From positions 908,414 through 972,413 of the forward strand of contig CAVVAV010000002.1 in assembly GCA_963746405.1 (NCBI GenBank): a stretch of 64,000 bases of DNA, written 5' to 3'. This document shows positions 5,705 through 55,633 of this stretch, piece by piece. The notes beneath the pieces were generated by a model. That model did no database searches and was not told where the DNA came from. It worked only from the letters and a program-made list of their open reading frames with translations. Position numbers and translations under genes: made by a program. Source of the DNA: an uncultured Chloroflexia bacterium. GTDB lineage: Bacteria > Chloroflexota > Limnocylindria > Limnocylindrales > CSP1-4. Positions within the stretch are counted from its first letter, which is position 1; every line of letters starts with the position of its first letter.

Positions 5705-5799
5705 GAGCACGAAGTCTAGCCACGCGGGTCGCCCCGCGACTACGCTCGTCGCGGGGTCTTGGACGGCGGTCGGACCGATCGCACCGAAGGGAGGGCGAG

Positions 5800-15122: not shown

Positions 15123-15297
15123 GCGATGAGATCCTCGGTCTTGTTTGGGCTGGGGCGGTTCTGGGTGTGTCGGCATGGTGCCAGCGAGGTCTGGTGTGGT
15201 GGAGTCCGCTAGAGGTACCAGCGGCGTGCGCCGGTCGTACCGTTGGCTGCCGACCCACGAACGGCGTTGTGGGGCCGCAACAGCCATCGCGAGTACG

Positions 15298-16341
15298 ATG
15301 GCGGGGATGGAGCCACTCGACACGCTCGGACGGCCGCTGCGTGATCTGCGCATCTCGGTCACCGACCGGTGCAACTTCCGGTGCACGTATTGCATGCCCA
15401 AGGAAGTGTTCGGTCGCGACTACGAATTCCTGCCCAAGGACCAGGTCCTGAGCTTCGAGGAGATCGAGCGCGCCGCACGCGCCTTCGTCGCCCTCGGAGT
15501 CGAGAAGCTGCGGATCACCGGGGGCGAGCCGCTGGTCCGCCGCGACCTGCCGACCCTCATCGCCCACCTGGCGGCGCTGCGAACGTCCGACGGCCGGGCA
15601 CTGGACCTGACCCTCACGACCAACGGGGCCGCGCTCGCGGCACTCGCGCGGCCGCTGGCCGAGGCCGGCCTGGGTCGGGTGACGGTGAGCCTCGATTCGC
15701 TCGACGACGCCGTGTTCGGTGCGATGAACGGGGTCGACTTCCCGGTGGCGCGGGTCCTCGATGGCGTTGACGCTGCGCTGGCGGCCGGCCTGGCCCCAGT
15801 AAAGGTGAACATGGTCGTCCGGCGCGGCGTGAACGAGTCGTCCGTCGTGCCGATGGCGCGGTGGGCCCGCGAGACCGGCGTGACCCTGCGTTTCATCGAG
15901 TACATGGACGTCGGGCACTCAAACGGCTGGCGTCTCGACGAGGTCGTTCCGGCCCAAGAGCTGATCGACGCCGTCGGCGCGGTCTGGCCGGCGACACCGG
16001 CTGACGCGAACTACCGGGGCGAGGTCGCCGGTCGATGGCGCTACCTGGACGGCCGGGGGGAGTTCGGGATCATCTCGTCGGTCACGCGGCCGTTCTGCCG
16101 GGACTGCAGCAGGGCCCGTCTTTCGGCGGACGGCCAGCTGTACACGTGTCTCTTCGCGGTCGCCGGCCGCGACGTGCGGGCCGTGCTGCGCGATGGGTCG
16201 AGCGACGAGGATCTCGTGGCATTCCTGGCCGACACGTGGCGCGCCCGGGACGATCGCTATTCCGAGTTGCGCGCCCTGGCGACGGCGGACGGGCAGCGGT
16301 CCGACCTGCCCAAGATCGAGATGTTCGCGATCGGCGGCTGA
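15298..16341 (+). CDS. moaA: GTP 3',8-cyclase (molybdenum cofactor biosynthesis protein A)
   Basis: Radical-SAM motif [10 protein letters not shown] and the MoaA C-terminal Cys cluster ([20 protein letters not shown]). Start chosen at ATG 15298 ([10 protein letters not shown]). Confidence 0.85.
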
Positions 16342-16378
16342 CCCGAGCAGATGGCCGGGGAACGGGCCTCGTCCACAG

Positions 16379-16411
16379 CCTGTCCACAGCGCGACGGGGT
16401 TCGTGGACAGG
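16379..16411 (+). other. hairpin CCTGTCCAC...GTGGACAGG within a 378-nt non-coding leader
   Basis: Perfect 9-bp inverted repeat seen directly. See the finding on region 16342..16719. Confidence 0.3.
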
Positions 16412-16719
16412 CGTCGGGCGTCCTCGGCAGGTTCGTGGATAAGCGCGTTGACCCGGGTCCCAGGGGCCACCTACCGTAGGTCTTGCCCGAAGGGGCCGAC
16501 CAGGGGCGCAGGAACCCGAGATCACATCAAGGACCTACGTTCTGCCGTTCGGTCGCTTCGGGCGCTTCGTTGCCCGAACGCTCGGTCCGTCTCACCACGG
16601 CCCGGGCCGCAGGGACGCCCGACGGGACGCGATCGGCATCCCGGTGTCGATACTTCCGTCGGGCGGACGGAGTCCCCTCGCCTCGGGCGTCCTATGCTGG
16701 ATGCGACCCTGGAGGCAAG

Positions 16720-17595
16720 ATGTCCGACCCCACCCCGGCCGTCGATCCGACACGTCCCATCCCGCCCGTGGAGCAGCCCGCCCGGATCAAGGCACTCGTC
16801 GCGGCCGTCCGCCAGCACACGGCGATCGTGCCGGAGGTGGGGATCGTCCTCGGGTCCGGACTGGGTGGGCTCGCCGATGACCTCGAGGACGCGGTCGCGA
16901 TCCCGTTCGCCGAGCTGCCTGGCTGGCCGCCGGCGACTGCACCGGGGCACGCCGGGCGTCTGTTGCTCGGCCGGCTTGGCGGCCGGCCGGTGGTGATGCT
17001 GCAAGGGCGATTTCACCTCTACGAGGGCAACGACCCGGGACTGGTCATCCAGCCCGTCCTGCTGTTCGGCGCCCTTGGGGCACGGATCGTCGTCCTGACG
17101 AACGCCGCCGGGGGCCTGGACCCGTCGTTCGGACCGGGCACGCTCATGGTCATGACCGACCACATCAACCTGACCGCTCGATCGCCGCTGATCGGCCCGA
17201 ACGCAGATGAGCTCGGGCCGCGCTTCGCGGACCTGACCGACGCGTGGAGCCCGCGCCTGCGCCGGCGCCTGCATGCGGCAGCGATCGCCGAGGAGGTCGA
17301 GGTCCGAGAGGGTGTCTATGTCGGACTGACGGGGCCGACGTACGAGACGCCTGCCGAGGTCCGGATGCTCGCCGCTCTCGGTGGCGACGCGGTCGGGATG
17401 TCGACGGTGCTCGAATGCATCGCGGCTCGCTGGATCGGCCTGGAGGTGTGCGGCGTCTCGCTCGTCACGAACGCCGGGGCCGGCTACACGGGGGCACCGC
17501 TGACCCACGAGGAGGTCCTCGAGTCCGGAGCCGAGGCCGGCCCGCGGCTGGCACGGGTGATCCGTCGCTTCCTGACGGACCTTGCCGACGATTGA
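16720..17595 (+). CDS. punA: purine nucleoside phosphorylase (PNP family I, PunA-type)
   Basis: ATG 16720 is preceded by GGAGG. Motifs VLGSGLGGLAD, GRFHLYEG and LGADAVGMSTV match PNP-I. Confidence 0.8.
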   Translation: MSDPTPAVDPTRPIPPVEQPARIKALVAAVRQHTAIVPEVGIVLGSGLGGLADDLEDAVAIPFAELPGWPPATAPGHAGRLLLGRLGGRPVVMLQGRFHLYEGNDPGLVIQPVLLFGALGARIVVLTNAAGGLDPSFGPGTLMVMTDHINLTARSPLIGPNADELGPRFADLTDAWSPRLRRRLHAAAIAEEVEVREGVYVGLTGPTYETPAEVRMLAALGGDAVGMSTVLECIAARWIGLEVCGVSLVTNAGAGYTGAPLTHEEVLESGAEAGPRLARVIRRFLTDLADD

Positions 17596-18130
17596 GTTGG
17601 CGACCATCCGTCTGCTGCAGGGCGACATCACCCAGGTCCGGGTCGACGCGATGGTCAACGCGGCGAACGAGCGGCTCGCGGGCGGCGGCGGCGTCGACGG
17701 CGCGATCCACCGTGCCGGCGGCCCGGCGGTCTTGGCGGACCTCGAACGGCGTTACGGCCGCGGCCGTTTCTGTCCGACGGGGAGTGCGGTGGTGGGTGCC
17801 GCGGGGAACCTGCCCGCGACGGTGGTCATCCACGCGGTCGGCCCGGTGTGGCAGGGCGGCGATCGCGGGGAGCCGGAGTCGCTCGCCTCGGCCTACCGAA
17901 CCGCGCTCGACCTGGCCGCGGCGGAGGGCGCTCGGACGGTCTCGTTCCCGTCCATCTCGACCGGCGTCTACGGCTACCCGGTCGACCAAGCCGCGCCGGT
18001 CGCGCTCGGCACGGTGCGCGATTGGCTCGCGGCGCACCCGGACGCCCTCGACATGGTCACGTTCGTCCTGTTCTCGAGCGATTCGCTAGCGGCCTTCGAG
18101 CGCGCCGAGGCCGCGCGGGCGGCCGGCTGA
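17582..18130 (+). CDS. macro domain protein (O-acetyl-ADP-ribose deacetylase-like)
   Basis: Motifs VDAMVNAANERLAGGGGVDGAIHRAGG and SIAFPSISTGVYGYP. TTG or GTG start that overlaps the punA 3' end. Confidence 0.7.
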   Translation: MPTIELATIRLLQGDITQVRVDAMVNAANERLAGGGGVDGAIHRAGGPAVLADLERRYGRGRFCPTGSAVVGAAGNLPATVVIHAVGPVWQGGDRGEPESLASAYRTALDLAAAEGARTVSFPSISTGVYGYPVDQAAPVALGTVRDWLAAHPDALDMVTFVLFSSDSLAAFERAEAARAAG

Positions 18131-18133
18131 TCG

Positions 18134-19258
18134 ATGGCCGCGAGGTCGACGGCACCGCTGCTGTCGCGACGCGCCCTCAATCGGACGCTGCTGGGCCGCC
18201 AGCTCCTGCTCGAGCGCGTTGACCGCCCGGCCGAGGATGTCATCGAGCATCTCGTCGGGATGCAGGCCCAGGAGCCACCCGATCCGTACCTGGCGCTGTG
18301 GAGCCGGATCCAAGGCTTCGACCCAGAGGAACTGAGCGCGCTCATCGAGGAACGGCGCGCGGTCCGCATGGGCCTCATGCGCACGACCCTACACCTGGTG
18401 ACCGCCCGCGACGCCAAGGCGCTCTATCCGGTCATGGCGGACGTGCTCCATCGAGCCTTCCGCAGCAGCCCGTTCGCGAAGCAGCTCGTCGGGGTCGACA
18501 TCGACGCGGTGCTCGACCTGGCCCGCGCCACGCTCGAGGAGCGGCCCCGCACGCCGGCCGAGCTCGGGAAGCTGCTCGCCCCGACCTGGCCCGACCGGGA
18601 CGCGCCGTCGCTGGCGTACGCCGCCCGGTTCCTGCTGCCATTGGTGCAGGTGCCGCCGAGGGGCCTGTGGGGCAAGACCGGCGGCGCGACGAACACGACC
18701 GCCGAGGCGTGGCTGGGTGGCCCCCTGGCCCCGTCGACGGCCGCGGACGAGGCGGTCCTGCGCTATCTCGGCGCGTTCGGGCCCGCGACGGTGTCCGACA
18801 TGCGGATCTGGTCGTGGCTCACCGGGCTGCGCGAGGTCGTGGAGCGGTTACGCCCACGCCTCCGCGTGTTCCGCGACGAGGCCGGTCGCGAGCTGTTCGA
18901 TGTCGAGGATGGGTTGTTCGTGGACGCCGACGCGCCGGCCCCGATCCGCTTCCTGCCGACATACGACAACATCTTCCTGTCGCACGACGACCGATCGCGG
19001 ATCCTCATCGAACGGATCGCCGTGCCCGACCTGATCTGGCGCGGCGGCGTCCTCGTCGACGGCTTCATCTCGGGCGCCTGGCGGATCCGCCGGGAGAAGC
19101 GGGAAGCGACGATGACGATCGAGCTGGTCACCCCGGTGCGAGGCGCCCAACGGGTCGAGCTCGAGGAGGAGGCGTCGCGCGCGTTCGCGTTCGTGGCGCC
19201 GGAGGCCGAGACGCGCGAGGTCGAGATCGTTCCCGCCAGCTGGCTCGGCGGGACCTAG
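18134..19258 (+). CDS. winged-helix DNA-binding domain protein, YcaQ/AlkZ-like DNA glycosylase family
   Basis: The N-terminal pattern LLGRQLLLERV....LVGMQAQEPPDPYLALWSR...MRTTLHLV resembles crosslink-repair glycosylases of the YcaQ family. Assignment is from memory. Confidence 0.5.
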   Translation: MAARSTAPLLSRRALNRTLLGRQLLLERVDRPAEDVIEHLVGMQAQEPPDPYLALWSRIQGFDPEELSALIEERRAVRMGLMRTTLHLVTARDAKALYPVMADVLHRAFRSSPFAKQLVGVDIDAVLDLARATLEERPRTPAELGKLLAPTWPDRDAPSLAYAARFLLPLVQVPPRGLWGKTGGATNTTAEAWLGGPLAPSTAADEAVLRYLGAFGPATVSDMRIWSWLTGLREVVERLRPRLRVFRDEAGRELFDVEDGLFVDADAPAPIRFLPTYDNIFLSHDDRSRILIERIAVPDLIWRGGVLVDGFISGAWRIRREKREATMTIELVTPVRGAQRVELEEEASRAFAFVAPEAETREVEIVPASWLGGT

Positions 19259-19300
19259 GCGCTTCGGGATCCAGGCGTCCGCGCTCCAGGCGTCCGAGAC

Positions 19301-19978
19301 TTAGGCGTCCAGGGTGCGCGGCGGCGCCTCGGCAGGTTCTCGGTCCTCCAGCGGGTCCGTGCCCGGCGATGAGCAGACGTAGTAGCGCAGCGGCAGGCGG
19401 CCGGTGTTCTCGACACGGTGGGTGAGCCCGGGCTCCACCCGGATCCCGGTCAGCGGCTCGAGGGTCTCGGTCGTCTCGTCGACCGTCACCAGGCCGCGTC
19501 CCTCGAAGACGACGAGGGCGTGCTCGGCGGCCGGATGGCGGTGCCAGGCATCGGCCGTGCCGGGGGCGACGACGACCTCGCTGATCGTGAACGTCGCTGT
19601 GCCGAAGTCGCCGGGCCGCACGATGAGCCGCCGCGAGATGCCGGCGTCGTCGATCACCACGGCGTCACCACCACGCCGGACAGGCTCGTCCTCGGCCTCC
19701 CACCGGCGGAAGAGCAGCCCGGGCCGGCGCGCGTCAGGCTCGACGGACGCGAGGAGGGCGAGGACGTCGACCGATCCCTCGTTTCGGACGAGGTGGTGCT
19801 CGGCCGGCGCCTCGTACAGCACGTCGCCAGCCCGGACCACGGCCCGGCGCTCGAGCTCCTCCCCATGCTCGAAGAGGAGCTCGCCCGCAGCGAGGTACAC
19901 GATGGTCTCGAGCCCGTGCCGGTGCGGGCCGATCTCGACGCCGGGTGGGATCCGGTCGAACTGGAGCCGGATCGTCAC
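19301..19978 (-). CDS. bicupin (two cupin_2 domains)
   Basis: Two cupin motifs: GPHRHGLETIVYLAAGE and AWHRHPAAEHALVVFEGRG. The GTG start at 19978 overlaps the thyX stop by 4 nt (GTGA). Confidence 0.6.
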   Translation of the reverse strand: MTIRLQFDRIPPGVEIGPHRHGLETIVYLAAGELLFEHGEELERRAVVRAGDVLYEAPAEHHLVRNEGSVDVLALLASVEPDARRPGLLFRRWEAEDEPVRRGGDAVVIDDAGISRRLIVRPGDFGTATFTISEVVVAPGTADAWHRHPAAEHALVVFEGRGLVTVDETTETLEPLTGIRVEPGLTHRVENTGRLPLRYYVCSSPGTDPLEDREPAEAPPRTLDA

Positions 19979-20859
19979 GCCTGCGGCAGTTCCCGGCCGG
20001 TCGCTCGAGCTGCGGCGGCCTTCTCGGCCCAGGCGCCCAGGACGTTGTCCTTGTGGGGTCGGATCGGACAGTGCTCGTCGCGGTTCTTGAACTCGTCGCA
20101 GTACCCGAGGGGCACGCACTTTGGCGCCAGGAACGAGCCGAGGAATGGCGACACGCCGAAGATCTCGTGGCGTACCAGTTGGAACAGCCGTCGGATCTCC
20201 CACTGGGCCATCGTGCACAGGCGCAACCCGGACATGTGGATCAGCGCCCGCAGGTTGGTCGTCATGACCAGGTTCGTCCGGGCCGCGTTCGGGAAGACGA
20301 AGCGCGCGTCCTCGCCCGGGACGCCTGCCTCGAGCATCTCGCCGTACAGCCCGAGCGCGCCATCGATCTGCGCCTCGTAGCGGTCGCGCAGCTCGGCATC
20401 GCCCTCGGCGATCGAGTGCGGCAGCATCGTGGCCGCGCCCTTGAACTTCACGTAGCGCTGGCTCTGCTGATCGAATGCGACACCGGCACGATGGCGGACG
20501 AGCTGGTGCGACAGCGTCCTCGACACCCCGGTGATCGCGAACGTGAAGACGACGTGCTCGATGGTCGAGCCGTGGCCCGATTCGATCACCGACGAGATGA
20601 GCTTCTGCATCTTGGCCGGGTCGTAGCCGCCGCCGACCGCCTTCTCGAAGATCTCCTCGGGGACCTCCTCCGAGTAGCACGTCCGGCACGCGGTGTAGAT
20701 GACCGGGACGTAGAACTTCTCGACGATGTCCCGGTCGGGGAACAGCAGGGAGACTTTCATCCCGAGGTCGCGTCGGCCCGGATTCTTGGGGATGCCGGTC
20801 TTGTCGCGGGCCGGCGGCTGGCCAGGCGGGACGGGATCGGGGAGGGGCTGGGCGGTCAT
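19975..20859 (-). CDS. thyX: FAD-dependent thymidylate synthase
   Basis: ThyX signature HQLVRHRAGVAFDQQSQRY (RHRxxxxxxxS) and VSRTLSHQL. The alternative start ATG 20760 (MKVSLLF) is plausible. Confidence 0.8.
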   Translation of the reverse strand: MTAQPLPDPVPPGQPPARDKTGIPKNPGRRDLGMKVSLLFPDRDIVEKFYVPVIYTACRTCYSEEVPEEIFEKAVGGGYDPAKMQKLISSVIESGHGSTIEHVVFTFAITGVSRTLSHQLVRHRAGVAFDQQSQRYVKFKGAATMLPHSIAEGDAELRDRYEAQIDGALGLYGEMLEAGVPGEDARFVFPNAARTNLVMTTNLRALIHMSGLRLCTMAQWEIRRLFQLVRHEIFGVSPFLGSFLAPKCVPLGYCDEFKNRDEHCPIRPHKDNVLGAWAEKAAAARATGRELPQA

Positions 20860-20909
20860 CGGAGCGCCAGTCTAGCCGAGGCGACCCGCAGGGGCGCGAG
20901 CCGAGCCGA

Positions 20910-21125
20910 TCAGTAGTAGTCCGAGCAGGACAGGAAGTAGCCGCAGCGACAGATGAGCTTGCACTTGCGCTCGTCCATCGCCGCACCGCAGTTGGCGCAG
21001 GTCATCATCACGAGGCCGGGGTCGACGGCGCCCGACGGCTCGTCGGGGTCCTCAAGGAACCGGATGGGTTGCACCGCCGAAAGCGCCGCGGGTCGCGTCG
21101 GGTCGTCGAGCATCGCGCGGCTCAT
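20910..21125 (-). CDS. small Zn-ribbon protein (CxxC..CxxC), uncharacterised
   Basis: 71 aa ending MMTCANCGAAMDERKCKLICRCGYFLSCSDYY. Its ATG overlaps the stop of the upstream AC-STAND gene (ATGA), and its own stop is 50 nt upstream of thyX. Confidence 0.5.
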   Translation of the reverse strand: MSRAMLDDPTRPAALSAVQPIRFLEDPDEPSGAVDPGLVMMTCANCGAAMDERKCKLICRCGYFLSCSDYY

Positions 21126-23870
21126 GGTACCGAGGCTGGATCCTCCAGCGCGTACGCGACGATCTCGTCGAGGCCCATCGCGGCGCCCTCGGCGACGTAC
21201 CGCTCGAAGTCCTCGGGGCTGAGCACCGATCGCGGCGACGGGGCGTTGAACTGCAAGTAGGTCTCCTCGACATACATCGCGAGGGTCGTCCCGCTGGTCG
21301 CCTGGAGGTGCCGCGCCGCCCCGAACAGTCGCCCGGCGCGGGGCGGGTCCCCGGCGCTGACGGCGATCGACGCGAGGTCGTCGAGGATCAGCGTGATTCC
21401 CGCGACATCACCGGCGTCTCGGAAATGTCCAAGGGCGGCGCGGGCGTTGGCGCGCGCGTCGTCGAACTTCGCCATGCCGATCTGGACGAGGGCGAGCATG
21501 TGCAGCGACCACGCCTCCATCGTGCGGTGGCCCGCCGAGCGATGCAGTTTCAGCGACTCGGTGTACCAATGCTCGGCAGGCGCGGAATCGGACGTGAAGT
21601 AGTGGTAGCTCCCGAGTGCCCAGAGGATGTTCCCTTCGCCGGCCTGGTCGCCGGCCTCGCGATACAGCGCGAGTGCCTCCTCGAGCTTGTGCAGGCCAAC
21701 GACGTACTTCGGTGCCTTCTGCGCCTCCGTCAGAGCCTCTCCGGTCAGACCCATGAGCGGCAGGATGTCTGCGTAGGCGTCGTTGTAGAGCGCGTTCGCG
21801 ATCTCGCGCTTGTCTCCCTGCTCGCGCCAGATCCGGAGCGCTTCGTGGTACCAGCGCTCGGCCGCCGGATGGTCCGCCTGCCAATAGGCGACGCCACCGA
21901 ATGCCTCGGCGAAATGCGCCGCGCAGGTGGGCTCGAGCGACCAGTCCTGGGCCGCCATCGCCTCGAACCGCATCCGCGCCTCGTTCAGGTAGCCGCGCTG
22001 CTGCCAGAAGCGCCATAGCGCGAACCCCATGCGCGCCCCCACGTCCGGGTCTGGCCGGGCCGTCGCCCATTCGAGGGCCGCACGCAGGTTGTCGTGGTCG
22101 CGCTCCAGCCGGTCCAGCCACTCGCGCTGGTCGATGCCCGTCAGGTGCGGCGCCGCCCGTTCGGCCAGGTCGAGCATGGCGTGGGCATGCCGTTCGGCGA
22201 TCGCGTCGGCCTCGCCGCGCGCGACCAGCATCTCGGCCGCGTACTCACGGATGGTCTCGAGCATCGTGAACCGCGGCGGCCCGTCGCCCGTGCCGTCGTC
22301 GATCCGCACAAGGCTCTGGTCGACGAGCGCGCCGAGGCCGTCGAAGACATCGATCCCGAGCTCGTCCGGGGGGCCGCAGACGGTCTCGGCCATCTCGAGC
22401 TCCCAGCCACCACGGAACACCGACAGGCGGTCGACGAGCCGCTTCGCGCCATCGTCGAGCAGGTCGTAGCTCCAGGCGATCGCGCCGCGCAGGGTCTGCT
22501 GCCGCTCCGGCAGGTCGCGGGAACCGGCGGTCAGGAGCCCGAGGTGGTGTTCGAGGCGGGCGAGGATCTGGTCCGGCGTGAGCAGCTTGAGACGCGCCGC
22601 GGCGAGCTCGATGGCCAGCGGCATGCCGTGGAGCCGGGCGGAGATGCCGGCCACGGCCGGTGCGTTCGCATTCGTGACCGTGAACCCGGGCTTGACCGCG
22701 GAACCGCGCGCGATGAACAGGCGGACCGCCTCGAACTGGTTCAGGGCATCGAGGTCGTACTCGCGCAGCTCGCGTGGCAGGTTCAGCCGATCGACCTCCG
22801 AAAGCCGGCTCGCATCCGGCGGCGCGGGGAGACCCGGCACGGGGTACTCCTGCTCACCCGAGACACGCAGCGCGATGCGTGTCGTGACGAGGCAGGCCAG
22901 GTTCGCGCACCGCCGAAGGAGGTCGGCCACGACCGGTCCGGCGCTGACGACCTGCTCGAAGTTGTCGAGGACGACGAGCATCCGCTGCTCCCCGATGTGG
23001 TCGGCAAGTGTGTCGATCGCGGGGCGATTGCGGCTGTCGGCCACACCGAGGGCCCGGCCGATCGTCGCCACCACCAGCTCCGGCGCTCGGACGGGCTCGA
23101 GCGCCACGAACCAGATCCCGTCCGGGAACTCGTCGGCCGCCGCCGCCGCGACCTGCAATGAGAGCCGCGTCTTGCCGGTCCCGCCCGGCCCGGTCAGGCT
23201 CAGCAGGCGGGTCCCACCCAGGAGCTGGACGGCCTCCGCGAGCTCCTTGTCGCGGCCGACGAAGGTCGTGAGCTGGGTGGGCAGGTTGTTCGGCCGCGCA
23301 TCCAGCGAACGCGGCGCGGGGAAGTCGGCAGGCAGGTCATCGATGACCAGCTGGGTGAGACGTTCCGGTGCGAGCAGGTCCTTGAGGCGGTGCTCCCCGA
23401 GGTCGCGGAGGCCGATGCCGTCGGGCAGCGTCGCGGCGACGAGGGTCCGCGTCGTGTCACTCAGCAGCACCTGGCCGCCGTGCGCGACGGCCGCGATGCG
23501 GGCTGTCCGATTGATGGCGTATCCGACGACATCGGCCCCGGTGCTCTCGATCTCGCCGGTGTGCAGCCCCATTCGGACGCGCAGCGCCGACCCCTTCCGG
23601 CCACGGCTCGGCCGCCACGGCCCGTTGCGCTGCGGCCGCCGCCGCGATCGCGTCGGTGGCGCCCGCGAAGATGACGAAGAACGAATCGCCTTCGGTGCTC
23701 TGCTCGTACCCGTCGTGCGCCGCGAAGGCCGCCCGAAGCAGCTCGCGGTGACGGTCGCGGACGTCGCGATACGGACCTGTGCCCAGGTCAAGCTCGAGGC
23801 GTGTCGAGCCCTCGATATCGCTGAACAGGCAAGTGACGGTCCCGGTCGGCGGACCGGATGCAGTGGACAT
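21122..23870 (-). CDS. class III adenylate/guanylate cyclase domain - NB-ARC/AAA ATPase - TPR (STAND) signalling protein; cyclase domain split by a 1-nt frameshift
   Basis: The N-terminal cyclase motifs TVTCLFSDIEGST...EGDSFFVIFAG are in one frame (start 23870). The continuation LRVRMGLHTGEIESTGADVVGYAINRTARI, the P-loop LTGPGGTGKTRL and the long TPR region are in the frame of ORF 21122..23791. The junction is near 23590..23600 (GGCGCTGCG). Confidence 0.6.
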
Positions 23871-23893
23871 GACGACGGCGCGCGGTATCCGGA

Positions 23894-24322
23894 TCAGTGC
23901 CGGCCGGCTTCGGTCAGCGTCCGAAGTCGCCCGGCCAGCCCGCGGAGCAGCGCGAGGGCGACGGTCGGCTGCTCGTTGATCACGGCCTCCAGATCCCACG
24001 TCGCGAGCGCCAGGCAGATGGTCTCGCCGTCTGCGATGACCTGCGCGATGCGCGGCTGGCCGTCGAGGACCGAGAGCTCACCGAAGAAGTCCCCCGGGCC
24101 GAGCGTCGCGATCGTCTCGCCATCGCGGACGACGCGGGTCCCGCCGCTCGCGATCATGAAGAACCCGGTCCCCACCTCGCCCTGACGGGCGATGACGTGA
24201 CCGTCCGTGAAGGCGACCTCGACCGTCCGATCGGCGATCCGCTCGAGGCCGGCGGCATCGACACCGGACAGCAGGGGCGCGGCCGCGAGCAGCTCGGTCC
24301 GGCGGTCGCGCGTCAGCGTCAT
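23894..24322 (-). CDS. cyclic nucleotide-binding domain protein (CNB only)
   Basis: Motif FFGELSVLDGQPRIAQVIA. ATG 24322 gives MTLTRDRRTELLAAAPLL. The stop is 23 nt upstream of the AC-STAND start. Confidence 0.65.
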   Translation of the reverse strand: MTLTRDRRTELLAAAPLLSGVDAAGLERIADRTVEVAFTDGHVIARQGEVGTGFFMIASGGTRVVRDGETIATLGPGDFFGELSVLDGQPRIAQVIADGETICLALATWDLEAVINEQPTVALALLRGLAGRLRTLTEAGRH

Positions 24323-24507
24323 CGGATCCCTCCTGCGAGCGGTGTCGTGACGAGTGTGCCCAATGGTTCGTCCCCCTCGGTCGAGATGCTGCGCCGCCCG
24401 GAGGCGGAGCGTCAAGGTCGGCCGGGCACCACGAGGCGTGCCGATCCGTGCCGCGGGCCGCGGCCTATGGCTTCACGTGGCGACCCGCGCATGGCACCAT
24501 GCGCCCG

Positions 24508-24930
24508 ATGGCCGGCCGGGACGAACTCATGGACGCGATCGCCGGTTTCGGGCTGTTCGCGGACCTGTCGTCGCCGCAGCTCGAGGGGGTGGTCCACACC
24601 TTCGAGGAGGTGGCCTACGCGGAGGGCCAGAAGGTCCTCCATCAGGGTCTCACCGGAGCGGGGTTCCACGTCATCCTCGACGGGGAGGCCGCCGTCCTCG
24701 TCGACGGGGAAGAGCGCGCCCGGCTGGGACGTGGCGACTTCTTCGGAGAGGTCTCGATATTCCTCGGCGAGGCGCCCATCGCCGACGTCGTGGCCACTCG
24801 GTCACTGCGCTGTCTGGTCCTGGCCGGGCCAGGTGTGGAGCCGTTCCTGATCGCCCATCCGCGGGTCATGTACCGGATGCTCCAGGCGCAGGCGCGCCGG
24901 CTGCGGGCGGCGAATCGATGGCGGAGCTGA
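24508..24930 (+). CDS. cyclic nucleotide-binding domain protein (CNB only)
   Basis: Motifs GFGLFADLSSPQLEGVV..GDFFGEVSIFLGEAPIADVVA. It is transcribed divergently from the other CNB gene. Its 3' end overlaps the next gene by 13 nt. Confidence 0.65.
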   Translation: MAGRDELMDAIAGFGLFADLSSPQLEGVVHTFEEVAYAEGQKVLHQGLTGAGFHVILDGEAAVLVDGEERARLGRGDFFGEVSIFLGEAPIADVVATRSLRCLVLAGPGVEPFLIAHPRVMYRMLQAQARRLRAANRWRS

Positions 24931-26468
24931 CGGGGACGGCCGCGGACGACCGCCCGTATCCACCCGGCGACTACCAGGTGGTCGTGATCGGCTCTGGACC
25001 CGGCGGGATTCAGGCCGCGTATTCGCTCGAGCGGCTCGGCCTTCGCCACGCGGCGATCTCCGCGGATCCCGGGCCTGGCGGCATGTTCCGGCGCTGGCCG
25101 TTCTTCCAGCGGCTCCTGTCGTGGACGAAGCCACACGCACCCGCCGAGCGCGGGTCGCGCGCCTACGAACGCTACGACTGGAACAGTCTGCTCGGCGAGG
25201 AGCCTTCGACGCGTGCCCTCCAGCCCGAATTCATGGACGGCACGTCCTACTTCCCGTCACGTCCGGAGATGGAGGCCAACCTGGCCGCGTTCGCGGATCG
25301 GGCCGGCGTCGCGTTCCGCTACGGCTGTCGATGGACCGGGACGTCGCTGGACGATGGGCCGGACGGACGCCGTTTCCTCGTGGAGACCACCGACGGGACG
25401 TATCGGGCCGAGGCGCTCGTCGTCGCCGTGGGCGTCGCCGAGCCGTATACGCCATCGGGGCCTGCGAGCGAGCACGCCCGCCACTATGCGGACGTGCGGC
25501 CTGCCGAGACGTACGCCGGCAAGCGCGTGTTCATCATCGGCAAGCAGAACTCCGGGTTCGAGCTCGCGAACGGCCTGCTGCCGTGGGCACGGCAGCTGGT
25601 GTTGGCGTCGCCGTCGACCGCCCGTCTGTCCGTGGACACACGCTCGCTCCTCGGGGTCCGGGCCCGGTACGTCCAGCCGTACGAGGACCACGTGCTGGGC
25701 GGGGGTGTGGCCATCCTCGATGCCGCGATCGAGCGGATCGAACGGGTGCCGGGTGGCGATGGGGCGTTGACCGTCCACGTCCGGCGGACCGACGGGGGCG
25801 GCGACCTCGTGCTCGAGGTGGACGAGGTCATCTCGGCGACCGGGTTCGTCTGCCCGCTCCAGGACCTTCCCGACCTGGGCGTGACGACGGTCGGTGCCAG
25901 CCGTCTTCCGGCGCAGACCGCCTGGTGGGAGAGCGCGAACGTGCCCGGGATCCATTTCGCCGGCACCATCGGCCAGGGCGCCAAGGGCCTGCAGCGCCAC
26001 GGGCAGCCGAGCAACTCGGGGGCCGTCCACGGAGCCCGGTACAACGCCCGGTTGCTCGCTGCTCGGCTTGCGGCGACGCGCTTCGGGGTCATGCCTGCTC
26101 GACCTCCGGTGGACGCGGCCGATCTGGTCGACCTCGTGACGAGCGAGCTGGCCGACGCGCCCGAGCTGTGGCACCAGCGTGGCTACCTCGCCCGGGTCTT
26201 CACCGCCGACCCTGATGCCGGACTCGTCGATGACGGCGTCCAGCCCCTCAGCCACGTCCTCGATTCGGGTGGGCCGGATGCGCTGGCGGTCACGCTCGAG
26301 GCAGACGGCACCGGCGCCATCTATCCGGTGCTCTACACGCGGATCCGGGGGACGACCGCGGAGCGGGCGCTCGATCCCGATCCGTTGCTGCGCTACGACG
26401 GCCAGGACGCGCGGCGCGCCATCGAGTCGGTCACGCGGACCGTGGCCGCGGACGCCGTCGCGCGATAG
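24918..26468 (+). CDS. FAD/NAD(P)-binding oxidoreductase (flavin monooxygenase/CzcO-like)
   Basis: Two dinucleotide-binding motifs: VVVIGSGPGGIQAAY and KRVFIIGKQNSGFELA. The true start is ATG 24918 inside the long ORF 24354..26468. Confidence 0.6.
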   Translation: MAELTGTAADDRPYPPGDYQVVVIGSGPGGIQAAYSLERLGLRHAAISADPGPGGMFRRWPFFQRLLSWTKPHAPAERGSRAYERYDWNSLLGEEPSTRALQPEFMDGTSYFPSRPEMEANLAAFADRAGVAFRYGCRWTGTSLDDGPDGRRFLVETTDGTYRAEALVVAVGVAEPYTPSGPASEHARHYADVRPAETYAGKRVFIIGKQNSGFELANGLLPWARQLVLASPSTARLSVDTRSLLGVRARYVQPYEDHVLGGGVAILDAAIERIERVPGGDGALTVHVRRTDGGGDLVLEVDEVISATGFVCPLQDLPDLGVTTVGASRLPAQTAWWESANVPGIHFAGTIGQGAKGLQRHGQPSNSGAVHGARYNARLLAARLAATRFGVMPARPPVDAADLVDLVTSELADAPELWHQRGYLARVFTADPDAGLVDDGVQPLSHVLDSGGPDALAVTLEADGTGAIYPVLYTRIRGTTAERALDPDPLLRYDGQDARRAIESVTRTVAADAVAR

Positions 26469-26510
26469 CGCCGTCGCGCGATAGCGCCGTCGCGCGATAG
26501 CGCCGTCGCC
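26454..26510. repeat. perfect tandem repeat (GCCGTCGCGCGATAGC) x3 plus a partial copy
   Basis: Seen directly. The 16-nt unit contains TAG. The first copy provides the stop codon of the oxidoreductase gene. Confidence 0.9.
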
Positions 26511-26527
26511 GGCGCCCTCTTCAGTGG

Positions 26528-27697
26528 CTAGTTCGGCGCCAGGCGGGCGAGCCGCTCGGCGGCGGCCATGAGCGTCTCGAGCCGCTTGGGAAACGCGAAC
26601 CGGACCTTCGTCCGTCCGAGCTCCGGGCGGGAGAAGAACGACGAGCCGGGGACCGCTGCGACCCCCGGGTCCCGGATCAGGCGATGGGCAAAGGCGACGT
26701 CGTCCTCTTCGGTGAGGTCGCGGATGTCGGTCATCACGTAGTACGCGCCCGCCGGCCGATGGACCCGGAACCCGGCGGCCTCGAGCGCAGGCACGAGGAC
26801 CTCGCGCCGTTCGCGGTAGCCCGCCAGCAGGTCGGCGTAGTAAGCGGCCGGGAACCCGAGTGCCGTCACGGCCGCGGCCTGGAGCGGAGCGGCCGCCCCG
26901 ACGGTCAGGAAGTCGTGGACCCGCCTGATGCCGATCGACATGTCGGCCGGTGCGATCGCCCAGCCGATCCGCCAGCCCGTCACGGAGTACGTCTTCGACA
27001 TCGAATGGATCGACACCGTCCGTTCCGCCATCCCGGGGAGCGCCGCCAGCGGGATGTGCTCGCCCTCGAACACAAGATGCTCGTAGATGTCGTCCGTGAA
27101 CGCGATGACATCGAATTCCCGGCACAGGCCGGCGACCAGCTCGAGCTCGTCGCGCGTGAAGACCTTGCCCGTCGGGTTGTGGGGCGAGTTGAGGACGATG
27201 CCGCGCGTCTTCGAGTTGAACGCCCGCCGCAGCTCGTCTGGATCGATCGACCAGTCCGGCTCGTGCAGCGTCACATAGCGTGGCGTCGCGTCGCTGAGGA
27301 TCGCGTCGGGGCCGTAGTTCTCGTAGTACGGCTCGAAGACGATCACCTCGTCGCCGGGATCGAGCAGGCCGAGCATGGCCGCGATCATCGCCTCGGTCGC
27401 GCCGCAGGTGACGGTGATCTGCGTCTCGGGGTCGATGTCGCCCCAGCCCGGGAAATGGCGTGGGGTGGTCTCGGCGATCGCGTCGCGCAGGGGCTTGGAG
27501 CCCCAGGTGATCGCGTACTGGTTGAGATCGGCGTCGACGGCGTCGGCGACGGCGCGCTTGAGCTCGGGCGGGCAGGCGAAGTCGGGAAATCCCTGGGCGA
27601 GGCTGACCGCACCGTGCGCGACCGCCAGTCGATTCATCTCGCGGATGACCGATTCGGTGAAGCGTTCCGCCTTGGCCGAGATCCTCGATGGTCGCAT
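26528..27697 (-). CDS. class I/II (fold-type I) PLP-dependent aminotransferase
   Basis: Motifs NSPHNPTGKVF and SMSKTYSVTGWRIGWAIA (PLP lysine). Start at ATG 27697 (MRPSRISAKAERF). Confidence 0.75.
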   Translation of the reverse strand: MRPSRISAKAERFTESVIREMNRLAVAHGAVSLAQGFPDFACPPELKRAVADAVDADLNQYAITWGSKPLRDAIAETTPRHFPGWGDIDPETQITVTCGATEAMIAAMLGLLDPGDEVIVFEPYYENYGPDAILSDATPRYVTLHEPDWSIDPDELRRAFNSKTRGIVLNSPHNPTGKVFTRDELELVAGLCREFDVIAFTDDIYEHLVFEGEHIPLAALPGMAERTVSIHSMSKTYSVTGWRIGWAIAPADMSIGIRRVHDFLTVGAAAPLQAAAVTALGFPAAYYADLLAGYRERREVLVPALEAAGFRVHRPAGAYYVMTDIRDLTEEDDVAFAHRLIRDPGVAAVPGSSFFSRPELGRTKVRFAFPKRLETLMAAAERLARLAPN

Positions 27698-27910
27698 CGT
27701 CCCGAAGTCTAGGGGGGTTCCGTGGCAGGGAGTGGCGTGGCCTGGTGATGCACATGTTCGTGGCAGGAAGTCGCATCGTCGGGCGATGCAGCTCTGCTGC
27801 ATCACCAAGCCGGCCGGCTGGCTTGCCGAGCCCCAGGACGTTCCGACCGAGCGGCCTGATGCCGCCGAGGTGCATCGCCCAGCGATGACGTGTCCGGCGA
27901 GGCGCGTGCA

Positions 27911-30064
27911 TCAGACCAGGTGGCGCGGGATCCGCTCGCTCCAGTCGCGCTCGAAGAAGCGGGCGCCGTCCACGTCGACCTCGAGCCGCACCGCCAGGTC
28001 GAAGTCGGAGGCGGTGCTCGTCTGGCGGGCATCGGCGCGGATCTCGATGTGGGTCAGCGCTCCGTCCCGTGCCGTCGTGCCGTCCCGACCCGCTTCTCGC
28101 TCCTGCCATCGATAGACGACGTGCGCGTCGAGCTCGGCCCGGGCCGGGTCGTTGTCCCAGGCGGTCATGCGAAGCGTCTCCGCCGCGTACAGACGGCGGC
28201 CATCGGGGACGATCGTCTCAGCGCCGTCGTGGACGTGGACCGTGACGGATCCGGCGATCACATCCTCGTCGATGCGCCAGACCGGCGGGTCCGCGCCGGC
28301 CGGCCCGGCCCCGTCCAGGGCCTCGGCGACGGGCCAGTGCACGTCCGGCGGCTCCGTCCGGAACGCGGGCACGGCCGCGTCGCCCGGGCCGCCGGCGGGC
28401 GGGATCACCGGCAACTCCAGCCTCGACGGGGTGGCGGGCCCACGATGCACCCCGAGAGTGGCGGGGAACGGCGATGGCCACAGTACCGGCCAGAGCGACG
28501 ACGCCAAAGCGACCCGGATCCGATGACCGGGGAGCCATCGATACCCCGCGGTCCGAAGCGGCACCCTGACCTCCTCGACGCGCCCGGGTCGCATCGGCTC
28601 CGGCTGCGCGTGCGACGCACGATGGGTCAGGTTCAGGACCCCGGCGCTTACCAAAGCTACGGTCCCGTCGGGTGACACATCCGCCAGGCGGACGGACAGC
28701 GTGGCGACGGGGGCGTCGACCTCCAAATGGACGACGACCTCGGGCACGCCGAGGATCTCGATCGCCTCGTTGAGGGGTCCGGACGTGTAGGTCGGGCCGG
28801 CATCCTCGTCTCGGCGCAGGTCGCGGGCGAGACCGTTCGGGGCGCCGCCGGCGCCCCATGACAACGCCCCGCGCGTGCCGGCGGTCGGTCGGTGCCGGAA
28901 GCGGTCGACCCCGTCGTCGGCCGATGCGGCGGCGGGCCTCGGAGCCGCCCCGTCCAGGTCGGCGAGACGGCCGACCAGCGGCGCGGCACCCCCGTCGAAG
29001 GCGAGGGCTCGCACGGTCACCTCGGGATGCGGACAGGCCGTGGCGGCCCGCCAGCGGCCAGCCGACGGGCCGGGGAACGCGGCTGGCGGCGTGAACTCGC
29101 GTTCGAACCACACGACCGGCGGCTCGGCATCCCATCCGTTGTCGATCTCGCGCAGATGGCGATCGAAGAAGCGCGCGATCTCATGCAGCTCGTCGATGTT
29201 CGGGCCGGGGCCGGCGTCATGCGGCCAGGAGTGGAACCAGTTGCCGATGAGCGCGTGCGACGGCGCCGGGCAGCGAGCCTGCATCCGGTATGCCGGGTCG
29301 ACGTAGCTGTCGTGCCAACCCCCGATGTTGAAGATCGCCGCCTCGATCGCGCCGTAGTCGGGCGCCAGCGACCCCTGGCGGTAATACGGCCCGTCCGTCT
29401 GATGCCGCAGCCAGGCGAACAGCCAGGGCGGTGTCGCATCGAGCCGTGCGCGCCACTCGTCGCGCCAGGCCGCGCCGCGAAACCCCGCGTCGGGTGGCAT
29501 CGCGTTCATCGCCACCTGGCTCACGGCGTACTGCGACAGCTCGCTGACCGTGACGCACCCGCCGCGGTAGTGGACGTCGTCGAGGTATCGATCATCGGTG
29601 GCCATCACGGGCACGATCGCACGCAGGTGTGGGGGTCGAAGGGCTGCAACCTGGATGGCGGTGAAGCCGCCATAGGAGATCCCCCACATCCCGACCCTGC
29701 CATCGCACCACGGTTGCAAGGCAAGCCACTCGACGACCTCGTAGCCGTCCTGCGTCTCGTCGGCCGTGTACTCATCGAGGGCGACGCCACGGGACGAACC
29801 GGTACCACGGACATCGATGCGACAGAGCGCGAAGCCCCGTGCCGCGAACCATTCGCCGCGGGTCACATCGGAGGCCCGACGCCAGTTGTCCTTGCCGTAC
29901 GGGATCATCTCGAGGATCGCCGGGACGGGGCCACCGACGGGCCGCCAGATGTTGGCCGAGAGCTCGACGCCGTCTCGGACGGCGATGCGCACGTCCCAGT
30001 CGACCACGACCTCGAAGCGGGGCTGCGGGGCCGGTCGGGTGGTCCGGGTGGGCTGCGTGGTCAC
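27911..30064 (-). CDS. CocE/NonD family hydrolase (X-Pro dipeptidyl-peptidase S15-like)
   Basis: Motifs WRPVGGPVPAILEMIPYGKDN and GMWGISYGGFT (Ser nucleophile elbow). Large C-terminal beta-sandwich region. GTG start. Confidence 0.75.
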   Translation of the reverse strand: MTTQPTRTTRPAPQPRFEVVVDWDVRIAVRDGVELSANIWRPVGGPVPAILEMIPYGKDNWRRASDVTRGEWFAARGFALCRIDVRGTGSSRGVALDEYTADETQDGYEVVEWLALQPWCDGRVGMWGISYGGFTAIQVAALRPPHLRAIVPVMATDDRYLDDVHYRGGCVTVSELSQYAVSQVAMNAMPPDAGFRGAAWRDEWRARLDATPPWLFAWLRHQTDGPYYRQGSLAPDYGAIEAAIFNIGGWHDSYVDPAYRMQARCPAPSHALIGNWFHSWPHDAGPGPNIDELHEIARFFDRHLREIDNGWDAEPPVVWFEREFTPPAAFPGPSAGRWRAATACPHPEVTVRALAFDGGAAPLVGRLADLDGAAPRPAAASADDGVDRFRHRPTAGTRGALSWGAGGAPNGLARDLRRDEDAGPTYTSGPLNEAIEILGVPEVVVHLEVDAPVATLSVRLADVSPDGTVALVSAGVLNLTHRASHAQPEPMRPGRVEEVRVPLRTAGYRWLPGHRIRVALASSLWPVLWPSPFPATLGVHRGPATPSRLELPVIPPAGGPGDAAVPAFRTEPPDVHWPVAEALDGAGPAGADPPVWRIDEDVIAGSVTVHVHDGAETIVPDGRRLYAAETLRMTAWDNDPARAELDAHVVYRWQEREAGRDGTTARDGALTHIEIRADARQTSTASDFDLAVRLEVDVDGARFFERDWSERIPRHLV

Positions 30065-55555: not shown

Positions 55556-55633
55556 GCGGCCCGCTTTGCTAGACTCGACGACGCCTCCCACGACTTCCCG
55601 ACCACCCATGGCGCGAACGCGCCAGGAGTTGAC

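Follow-up and report, generated by a model that had tools for sequence, protein, structure and literature searches.

In the 64,000-nt stretch of Candidatus Limnocylindria (Chloroflexota) DNA analyzed here, hereafter the window, a class III nucleotide cyclase that continues into a P-loop NTPase and TPR repeats adjoins two proteins consisting only of a cyclic-nucleotide-binding (CNB) domain and a flavoprotein, as a first, sequence-only reading of this DNA had recognized. We put the chances at about even that the functional unit is a vertically inherited, Limnocylindria-specific block of four and sometimes five genes arranged in two back-to-back operons. The first would comprise CNB1 followed by the STAND-type cyclase (AC-STAND) and, in approximately 40% of the genomes, a tiny Cys-rich protein; the second would comprise CNB2 and, in translational coupling with it, an FMO/YpdA-like flavoprotein. 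It is plausible that the cyclase, the two CNB-type proteins, and the flavin enzyme form an uncharacterized signaling unit of one soil Chloroflexota class, and we read the block as a form of STAND-cyclase plus CNB-receptor signaling particular to this lineage. The sequence-only reading, which took the host for a member of the Actinobacteria, recognized no described module of such composition, and none was found in the literature searched.

Gene layout and protein domains

The positions and domains that had been proposed for seven genes are borne out by frame plot, translations, and Pfam/NCBIfam models, and the spacing claimed for them matches the measured gaps and overlaps. The models assign domains to all proteins but the Zn-ribbon-like one, with scores far above chance—that of the cyclase being reached only after repair of a frameshift. 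Five of the genes lie on the minus strand: CNB1 is followed after 23 nt by AC-STAND, the stop of which overlaps the ATG of the Zn-ribbon gene by 4 nt; thyX follows after 50 nt and overlaps the bicupin gene by 4 nt. The starts of CNB1 and the divergent CNB2 are 176 to 185 nt apart, and CNB2 and the flavoprotein gene share 13 nt where the former stops and the latter starts, an overlap that is kept in most loci.

CNB1 (23,894–24,322, minus strand) is a single-domain protein of 142 aa that matches Pfam cNMP_binding at 66 bits. Its phosphate-binding cassette, FGELSVLDGQPRIA, is canonical, with the Glu and Arg residues kept across 63 orthologues, and its closest PDB matches are the CNB domains of PKG/PKA-R and CRP. 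CNB2 (24,499 or 24,508 to 24,930, plus strand) has approximately 140 aa, matches the same family at 45.9 bits, and is a paralogue of CNB1 with 37% identity. Its cassette, FGEVSIFLGEAPIA, is degenerate: the Arg is replaced by Pro, a change kept across 66 orthologues. The earlier description of both proteins as CNB readers is hence not supported for CNB2. CNB-homology domains without cyclic-nucleotide binding occur in KCNH channels (CNBHD) and in many CRP/FNR sensors; CNB2 likewise retains the signature of the fold without the phosphate-binding Arg but, unlike these, is a free-standing protein. CNB2 is more likely a noncanonical regulatory subunit of the flavoenzyme.

The flavoprotein (24,918–26,468, plus strand; 516 aa; Pfam Pyr_redox_3) features two dinucleotide-binding domains of the FMO/YpdA-like type. 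It is 18 to 24% identical to Class B-type flavoproteins: type II FMO (4a9w); the bacillithiol-disulfide reductase YpdA/Bdr (7a76); and the N-hydroxylating monooxygenases DesB and SidA. Two features set it apart from these proteins: an extra C-terminal domain of approximately 130 aa and the coupling of its gene to a CNB-fold gene. Relatives with approximately 30 to 35% identity are enzymes of NRPS clusters that have no CNB gene, which weighs against the proposed unit.

The Zn-ribbon-like, Cys-rich protein (20,910–21,125, minus strand; 71 aa) has no match in Pfam or in the PDB. Its last 30 residues are unchanged across 49 homologues; besides 2286 unnamed homologues there are named ones, which belong to Limnocylindria. 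The gene occurs in 32 of 80 loci and belongs to the CNB1-AC operon as an optional gene. ThyX (19,975–20,859, minus strand; 294 aa; Thy1 E = 4e-56; TIGR02170 160 bits) has homologues of 79 to 97% identity across the class; it is a housekeeping flavin-dependent thymidylate synthase and a neighbor outside the module. The bicupin (19,301–19,978, minus strand; 225 aa) features two Cupin_2 domains and a GTG start that overlaps the thyX stop. It is found in 10 of the 66 loci with enough downstream flank and is an optional passenger downstream of thyX.

The cyclase and its frameshift

AC-STAND (21,122–23,870, minus strand; Pfam Guanylate_cyc, AAA_22/NB-ARC, and TPR_12) is composed of an N-terminal class III cyclase, a P-loop NB-ARC/AAA NTPase, and a C-terminal TPR region. 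The gene itself had been correctly recognized; it was, however, taken for a single open frame, and a +1 frameshift was overlooked, after repair of which the protein has a length of approximately 915 aa. DNA alignment places a one-base insertion between 23,580 and 23,592, near 23,585, that splits the cyclase domain: the N-terminal half (FSDIEGST...GDSFF) lies in the frame of the ORF 23,457–23,999, and the remainder in that of the ORF 21,122–23,791. If the shift were real, the cyclase would be a recent pseudogene and the module dead in this genome. That four intact relatives lack the extra base speaks for this reading, which we nevertheless regard as unlikely: beyond the shift, 824 codons stay open with normal codon-position GC; sister long-read assemblies of a related species have AC or FAD broken at different, nonshared places; and several MFD MAGs carry many such breaks, the last two patterns being typical of indel errors. 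Since the gene is intact—one frame—in most relatives, the frameshift in the window is likely an assembly error.

The best PDB sequence matches of AC-STAND are the mycobacterial cyclases Rv1900c (1ybt, E = 4.5e-17) and Ma1120. All 49 orthologues compared retain both metal-binding Asp residues, the transition-state Arg, and the Walker-A Lys; at the position of the transition-state Asn, N occurs in 39 and H in 11. The purine-specifying pair is not Lys/Asp, and therefore no nucleotide specificity is read from the sequence. The substrate-specifying residues vary among the 49 orthologues (S/G/Q and D/S/G/A/N), which could mean relaxed or weak catalysis. Identity to the window amounts to 66% in the cyclase domain, 65% in the NTPase, and 54% in the TPR sensor, the least conserved part.

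Conservation, promoter-like elements, and extent of the proposed unit

The arrangement FAD(−) CNB2(−) <> CNB1(+) AC(+) upstream of thyX is found in the same order and orientation in 56 of 68 informative species-level related genomes. The comparison of gene neighborhoods upholds a four-gene core, but not the Zn-ribbon or the bicupin, as regular members. Conservation is not supported as evidence of function, however: co-occurrence in the block is no stronger than the background, since the unrelated neighbor MoaA is linked to thyX in 66 of 66 loci, because of which conserved colocalization has no power to separate function from synteny. An S15 peptidase is likewise retained at the region in 59 of 68 genomes. 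The high synteny of this chromosomal region also accounts for the presence of thyX and the bicupin beside the block. The block has been passed on vertically without changing place: it occupies the same chromosomal position in most species of the class, and its divergence follows that of the neighboring housekeeping genes.

The CNB1-AC and CNB2-FAD operons are separable: CNB2-FAD occurs alone in three genomes, CNB2-FAD with CNB1 and without AC in four, and CNB1-AC alone in one. AC and CNB1 (rho 0.86), as well as CNB2 and FAD (rho 0.80), rank with the pairs that covary most closely. It is possible, if doubtful, that these are two unrelated neighboring modules, placed head to head by inherited synteny. 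CNB1 would then buffer or feed back on the cyclase within a self-contained cNMP unit as a second-messenger sponge, and CNB2-FAD would be an enzyme with a CNB-fold subunit sensing another ligand. The genomes with separated pairs, the lack of the phosphate-binding Arg in CNB2, and the equally strong background synteny argue for such a division, and a sponge has a precedent in Rv1636 of mycobacteria, a small cAMP-binding protein of the USP fold (PMC11107214). As a small single-domain messenger binder, Rv1636 illustrates a role that CNB1 may have by analogy; it differs from CNB1 in its fold and in lacking genetic linkage to a cyclase. Against two unrelated modules stand the paralogy of CNB1 and CNB2, their head-to-head position with closely spaced conserved promoters, the absence of the entire four-gene block from three genomes, and the co-occurrence in 56 of 68.

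The promoter-like element of the CNB1-AC operon (24,386–24,415, minus strand) reads TTGACGC-N17-GGCGCAGCAT; it is kept in a 62-locus intergenic alignment and occurs once in the window, with zero occurrences expected by chance. That of the CNB2-flavoprotein operon (24,472–24,500, plus strand) reads TTCACG-N17-CACCAT with TGG in front and, as read from the sequence, ends 7 nt before the ATG at 24,508; its GTGGCAC(G/C)AT block is kept in the 62-locus alignment. ThyX has a −10 box of its own, TAGACT (20,869–20,874, minus strand), 9 nt upstream of its ATG. TAGA(C/T)T, replaced by TAGGAT in a single locus, lies 6 to 10 nt before the thyX start in 80 of 80 loci, whatever gene is upstream and also in genomes without the block, and thyX is thus predicted to be transcribed from its own near-leaderless promoter. 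In many genomes, only 22 to 50 nt separate the AC stop from this box. Between AC and thyX, no terminator can be discerned; transcription from AC may therefore run into thyX.

The sequence-only reading had joined the five minus-strand genes in one chain. That all seven genes form one cAMP-type cluster tying cyclic-nucleotide signaling to thyX and the bicupin is very improbable, despite the tight packing in the window, the fact that thyX follows AC in the same orientation in 56 of 68 genomes, and the short, apparently terminator-free distance between them. The invariant −10 box, the housekeeping character and high conservation of thyX, its even tighter linkage to MoaA, and the scarcity of the bicupin oppose it, as does the separation of AC from thyX in some genomes by an MFS transporter gene, the Zn-ribbon gene, or a second AC paralogue. 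Given the optional bicupin and Zn-ribbon, these insertions, and the separate thyX −10 box, the core is therefore delimited to two back-to-back operons.

Proposed signaling path and related systems

In the proposed four-gene unit, the TPR sensor would bind a ligand or partner protein, upon which the NTPase would switch its state and oligomerize. Oligomerization would allow the N-terminal cyclase domains to dimerize, as class III catalysis needs, and the putative cyclic nucleotide produced by AC-STAND would be bound by CNB1 through its canonical Glu/Arg cassette. The most economical output would be protein-level control of the flavoenzyme through contacts between CNB1 and CNB2, a reading suggested by their paralogy and their CRP-like C-helix. 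Because none of the four core proteins carries a recognized output domain, the path from CNB1 to its target is a conjecture.

STAND NTPases are common in defense systems, and a cyclase adjoining a CNB protein is also the arrangement of Pycsar, in which the pyrimidine cyclase PycC is paired with a CNB-TIR or CNB-TM effector. Of the PycTIR models, only the CNB part is matched by CNB1 and CNB2 (53 and 34 bits). An antiphage function, either Pycsar-like, as had been loosely suggested, or of an Avs-like STAND, is nonetheless extremely improbable: the cyclase matches the PycC models only at E = 0.003 (15 bits); a TIR or TM effector domain and an Avs match are absent; and the block, which shows no composition anomaly, is inherited vertically at its fixed locus and not located in a defense island.

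In Xanthomonas campestris, the class III cyclase XC_0250, which produces cGMP, has a linked receptor, XC_0249, of CNB-GGDEF architecture (PMC3770947). Both systems place a class III cyclase gene next to a gene for a CNB-domain protein; XC_0249, however, features an enzymatic GGDEF output, whereas CNB1 and CNB2 lack any output domain. The cyclase of the window is, unlike XC_0250, a STAND protein.

The mycobacterial proteins Rv0386, Rv1358, and Rv2488c consist of a class III AC, a MalT/NB-ARC-type ATPase, TPR repeats, and a LuxR HTH. They share with AC-STAND the N-terminal cyclase, the STAND-type NTPase, the TPR region, and a noncanonical purine-specifying pair. A mycobacterial multidomain cyclase group has been described with a Gln-Asn pair and dual AC/GC activity (bioRxiv survey 10.1101/2024.03.06.583649). 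AC-STAND differs from the three proteins in lacking the C-terminal HTH, which rules out direct DNA binding as its output. The dual-activity cyclase with the Gln-Asn pair we take to be Rv0386. A further difference from the three mycobacterial proteins lies in lineage and gene context: AC-STAND belongs to Chloroflexota, and a CNB-only gene always lies ahead of its own gene.

Gene content and the reading frame of the cyclase gene

The window has a G+C content of approximately 70%, so raw ORF lists are crowded; genes were called from third-position GC and translations. The minus strand carries five genes: a bicupin of 225 aa with two Cupin_2 domains (19301–19978); ThyX with 294 aa (19975–20859; Thy1 E=4e-56); a 71-aa Cys-rich protein without a family match, named Zn-ribbon here (20910–21125); the cyclase–NTPase–TPR protein AC-STAND, which was assigned by profile matches (21122–23870); and CNB1, a 142-aa protein consisting only of a cyclic-nucleotide-binding (CNB) domain (23894–24322). 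This chain features gaps of 23 and 50 nt and two 4-nt overlaps. Divergent from CNB1 and separated from it by approximately 180 nt, the second CNB-only protein, CNB2, is encoded on the plus strand (24499/24508–24930) and overlaps by 13 nt with the gene of a 516-aa flavoprotein (FAD, 24918–26468, plus strand). A sequence-only reading had taken these seven genes as one cAMP-type signalling cluster. The genes and their spacing are confirmed by translations and profiles; the single open frame assigned to AC is not, since a frameshift had been overlooked. As a whole, the earlier interpretation is partly supported; corrections made here concern the CNB2 cassette, the source lineage (taxonomy) and the frameshift.

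One flank (window 15145–19258) carries MoaA, a PNP_UDP_1 phosphorylase, a Macro-domain protein and an AlkZ-like DNA glycosylase, and the other (window 26528–30064) a class I/II aminotransferase and an S15 X-Pro dipeptidyl-peptidase; these genes are ordinary and unrelated to the block formed by FAD, CNB2, CNB1 and AC. An Rfam search of window 19000–27000 returned no RNA family.

Residues 1–95 of AC (FSDIEGST...GDSFF...PWPEGV) lie in one frame and the remaining approximately 820 in another. Alignment with four intact relatives places this +1 frameshift, one extra base, near 23585. In most relatives, residues 1–915 lie in a single frame, and several long-read MAGs feature many frame changes within AC. 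In a related species with three sister assemblies, AC or the flavoprotein gene is broken at different, non-shared places, and one of the three carries an intact 932-aa AC. In the window, the reading frame stays open for the 824 codons past the shift, and codon-position GC is normal there. This pattern is more readily explained by an assembly indel; that the shift is real, and the window cyclase hence a very recent pseudogene, is less likely. For genome scans, it follows that indel errors in long-read MAGs yield false pseudogenes as well as false domain fusions.

The Guanylate_cyc profile is matched solely by the frameshift-repaired protein (31.4 bits, cut-off 21.9), which aligns end to end with Rv1900c (1ybt, E=4.5e-17) and Ma1120. 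Across 50 sequences, 49 orthologues and the window, the metal-binding Asp residues D18 and D62 and the transition-state R124 are invariant, and at position 120 the transition-state Asn is found in 39, with His in its place in 11. Judged by these residues, the catalytic core of the cyclase is complete. The purine-specifying Lys position is occupied by S, G or Q and never by K in the same 50 sequences, and the purine-specifying Asp position by D in 26, S in 17, G in 4, A in 2 and N in 1. Neither the canonical adenine pair Lys...Asp nor the guanine pair Glu...Cys/Ser is present, and because this substrate-specifying pair is non-canonical, the product nucleotide is not predictable.

AC features a STAND layout: a Walker A P-loop NTPase flanked by the effector domain at the N terminus and a repeat sensor at the C terminus. 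The Walker A motif GPGGTGKT has an invariant Lys in the 49 orthologues and the window. AAA_22 (28.9 bits, cut-off 27) and TPR_12 (47.5 bits, cut-off 30.1) are matched, while NB-ARC (22.9 versus 23.5) and nSTAND1 (20.7 versus 27.1) fall below their cut-offs. Identity to the window protein is 66% in the cyclase domain, 65% in the NTPase and 54% in the TPR region, the most variable part, as is to be expected for a sensor. AC belongs with the mycobacterial AC-ATPase-TPR proteins (Rv0386 and relatives); unlike these, it lacks an HTH, for which the profile search gave no match. In a sub-clade of five loci (L022, L040, L063, L067 and L077), AC-STAND occurs as a tandem duplicate (approximately 2.4–8.2 kb in locus coordinates), the identity of the second copy to the window protein ranging from 38 to 55% across individual HSPs.

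Conservation of the neighbourhood and predicted transcription units

The closest ThyX homologues are 85–96% identical and, like the 80 related loci recovered with ThyX, stem from soil and water MAGs. Those relatives that bear finer names belong nearly all to Candidatus Limnocylindria or Limnocylindrales of the phylum Chloroflexota, so the actinobacterial frame of reference proposed earlier does not apply. All window proteins were searched against the 80 loci by tblastn, with counts limited to loci with enough flank; for the block, these are the 68 loci whose flank upstream of thyX measures 8 kb or more. The arrangement FAD(−) CNB2(−) <> CNB1(+) AC(+) is found in identical order and orientation in 56/68 loci. 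AC alone is missing in 4 of the 68, only CNB2–FAD is present in 3, all four genes are absent in 3, only CNB1–AC is present in 1, and in one further locus (L065) CNB1 is diverged or broken. As far as sampled, the block is confined to this one uncultured class.

The co-localisation is thus conserved, as the sequence-only reading would have it. However, the unrelated MoaA, downstream of thyX in 66/66 loci, and the upstream S15 peptidase (59/68) are kept equally, which makes the test non-discriminating: the whole region is syntenic across the class, and the conserved neighbourhood does not count as evidence of function. The divergence of the block genes correlates with that of flanking housekeeping genes, which is the expectation under vertical descent. 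In strongly syntenic clades, genome scans should hence not equate kept co-localisation with functional evidence.

A protein of approximately 235 aa, absent from the window, occurs at L039 (4988–5713, minus strand), at L016 (8580–9272, minus strand) and at 13 other loci. Its N-terminal VLFGDVVDSR resembles the beginning of a class III cyclase, its C terminus carries a sigma70_r4/LuxR-like HTH, and one clade has its gene immediately downstream of the one for the flavoprotein. It was considered as a stand-in for the missing cyclase and rejected since it is also present in AC-bearing genomes; occurring alongside AC and in one block-less genome, it is a backbone gene of the clade.

The five-gene chain does not hold as one operon. 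The bicupin is found in 10/66 loci and the Zn-ribbon gene, despite 2286 unnamed homologues, at this locus in 32/80; one clade carries an MFS transporter gene between AC (or CNB1) and thyX, and five loci carry a second AC-STAND paralogue between AC and thyX. Synteny is the best explanation for the suggested tie to thymidylate synthesis and the bicupin, and that all seven genes form one integrated cluster is very improbable.

Neither promoters nor terminators turned up in a scan with simple consensus motifs, and phylogenetic footprinting took its place; the footprinted promoters are accordingly predictions. With the start codon matching window 20859, the box TAGA(C/T)T (TAGGAT in one locus) lies 6–10 nt before the thyX ATG in 80/80 loci; in the window, it is TAGACT at 20869–20874 on the minus strand, 9 nt before the ATG. 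The box is kept whether AC, the Zn-ribbon gene or the MFS gene lies upstream, even where the AC stop is 22–50 nt away or overlapping. It looks like the −10 box of a near-leaderless transcript, and its conservation in all 80 loci gives thyX a predicted promoter of its own. A single promoter for the five-gene chain is, in silico, incompatible with this internal −10 box, though read-through from AC into thyX may occur. Further copies of TAGACT are located at 27706–27711 and 5713–5718 on the minus strand and at 55570–55575 on the plus strand. One copy lies just upstream of the window aminotransferase gene, and TAGACT may, as its placement suggests, be a −10 box in general use in this lineage, driving mRNAs that are leaderless or nearly so.

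The CNB1/CNB2 spacer features two conserved blocks in a 62-locus alignment. The CNB1-side block, TTGACGC-N17-GGCGCAGCAT, is followed by a variable leader and GGAGG before CNB1, and occurs once in the window with 0 occurrences expected by chance. The CNB2-side block on the other strand, TGGCAC(G/C)AT after a TTC(A/C)CG-like hexamer, ends 7 nt before the ATG at 24508. By these predicted promoters, CNB1–AC and CNB2–flavoprotein are two conserved back-to-back operons.

The CNB proteins, the flavoprotein and a putative circuit

Both small proteins exceed the cNMP_binding cut-off of 27.5 bits: CNB1 with 66 bits and its paralogue CNB2, which is 37% identical, with 45.9 bits. The phosphate-binding cassette of CNB1, FGELSVLDGQPRIA, contains Gly-Glu and the phosphate-contacting Arg, both of which (Glu and Arg) reach a conservation of 95% or more across 63 orthologues. 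Its consensus FGELSVLDGxPR(I/V)A aligns with the PKG/PKA cassettes, and the nearest sequence matches are the CNB domains of PKG, PKA-R, CRP and MlotiK1; judged from sequence, it is a textbook cassette. In CNB2, Pro replaces the cyclic-phosphate-binding Arg (FGEVSIFLGEAPIA; consensus FGEVSI(L/F)LGE(P/A)PIA, with GEPPIAD at the Pro site), an exchange conserved in 66 orthologues, so CNB2 is not to be assumed a cyclic-nucleotide reader. Of the two readers proposed earlier, CNB1 thus remains a candidate and CNB2, with its degenerate cassette, does not.

The flavoprotein matches the Pyr_redox_3 profile and a fold of FMO/YpdA/NMO type. No equivalog model fits, the best NCBIfam match being ArsO with 52 bits versus a cut-off of 425. 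Fusions of CNB and Pyr_redox_3 in three public database proteins (P0216, P0202 and P0146), would-be Rosetta-stone evidence, were discarded as frameshift mosaics, in which the CNB C terminus is swapped for an out-of-frame read-through of the FAD frame. A link between CNB and flavoprotein beyond the class was likewise rejected: flavoprotein homologues with 30–35% identity (hosts Kitasatospora, Methylocystis and Pyrinomonadaceae) are encoded in NRPS clusters that contain no CNB gene.

STAND proteins oligomerise when a signal binds, and the active sites of class III cyclases form at the dimer interface. On this basis, sensing by the TPR region would lead to NTP-dependent oligomerisation of AC-STAND, which would dimerise and thereby activate the cyclase domains; the product would then be bound by CNB1. 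Conjecturally, CNB1 would relay the signal to the CNB2–flavoprotein pair, for example through a CNB1/CNB2 heterodimer. It is plausible that the cyclase/CNB/flavoprotein core is a lineage-specific signalling unit, and chances are about even that the four genes form a linked circuit. The main alternative, possible but unlikely, is that the two operons, conserved back to back in a region of general synteny, are functionally independent; CNB1 could then be a buffer or feedback element by analogy with Rv1636, which has been proposed as a cAMP sponge (PMC11107214). The linked circuit in its most specific form is rather improbable: an undescribed non-transcriptional circuit in which CNB1 reads a possibly non-canonical cNMP of the STAND-activated cyclase, and CNB1 and CNB2 together switch a dedicated flavin monooxygenase on or off. 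In an uncultured class of Chloroflexota, single-domain CNB proteins would then make up a PKA-like regulatory-subunit-plus-enzyme logic.

Limnocylindria are an abundant, uncultured lineage of soil and freshwater, for which we know of no experimental signalling data. If the core reading is true, the block offers a testable entry into their cyclic-nucleotide signalling and features CNB domains that relay a signal without a fused output, possibly to an enzyme and not to DNA.

Relation to known systems and the remaining proteins

The literature search found no description of a module combining a CNB-only pair, a STAND cyclase and a flavoenzyme, in agreement with the sequence-only reading, which had not recognised a described one. 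Adjacent genes of a cyclase and a CNB receptor have a precedent in XC_0250/XC_0249 (PMC3770947); there, the receptor carries an output domain, whereas CNB1 and CNB2 have none. The suggested Pycsar-like logic fails in all three features tested: the best PycC model reaches only E=0.003 and 15 bits for the cyclase; CNB1 and CNB2, with 140–143 aa, lack a TIR or transmembrane killing domain and match the 288-position PycTIR model solely at profile positions 10–140 and 32–143, respectively; and the block occupies a fixed locus in 56/68 species in place of a patchy, mobile, defence-island spread. On the PADLOC scores, membership in Pycsar or other defence systems is rejected, and a defence role of the block is extremely improbable.

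The last 30 residues of the 71-aa Cys-rich protein are invariant, TCANCGxxMDERKCKLICRCGYFLSCSDYY with six Cys and a terminal YY, while the N terminus drifts. It has no match in Pfam, NCBIfam, PADLOC or the PDB, and its AF2 model is unusable (pLDDT 60). A Zn-ribbon and a peptide-precursor-like product are both conceivable; no gene for a maturase lies close by. ThyX matches the TIGR02170 equivalog with 160.3 bits (cut-off 87.9) and carries the RHR-x7-8-S motif as RHRAGVAFDQQS, read directly from the sequence. Outside the Pfam Thy1 core (residues 53–238 of 294), the ThyX proteins of the clade feature a conserved N-terminal extension with KTGIPKNPGRRDLGM and, at the C terminus, a tail rich in Cys and His, CVPLGYCDEFKNRDEHCPIRPH.
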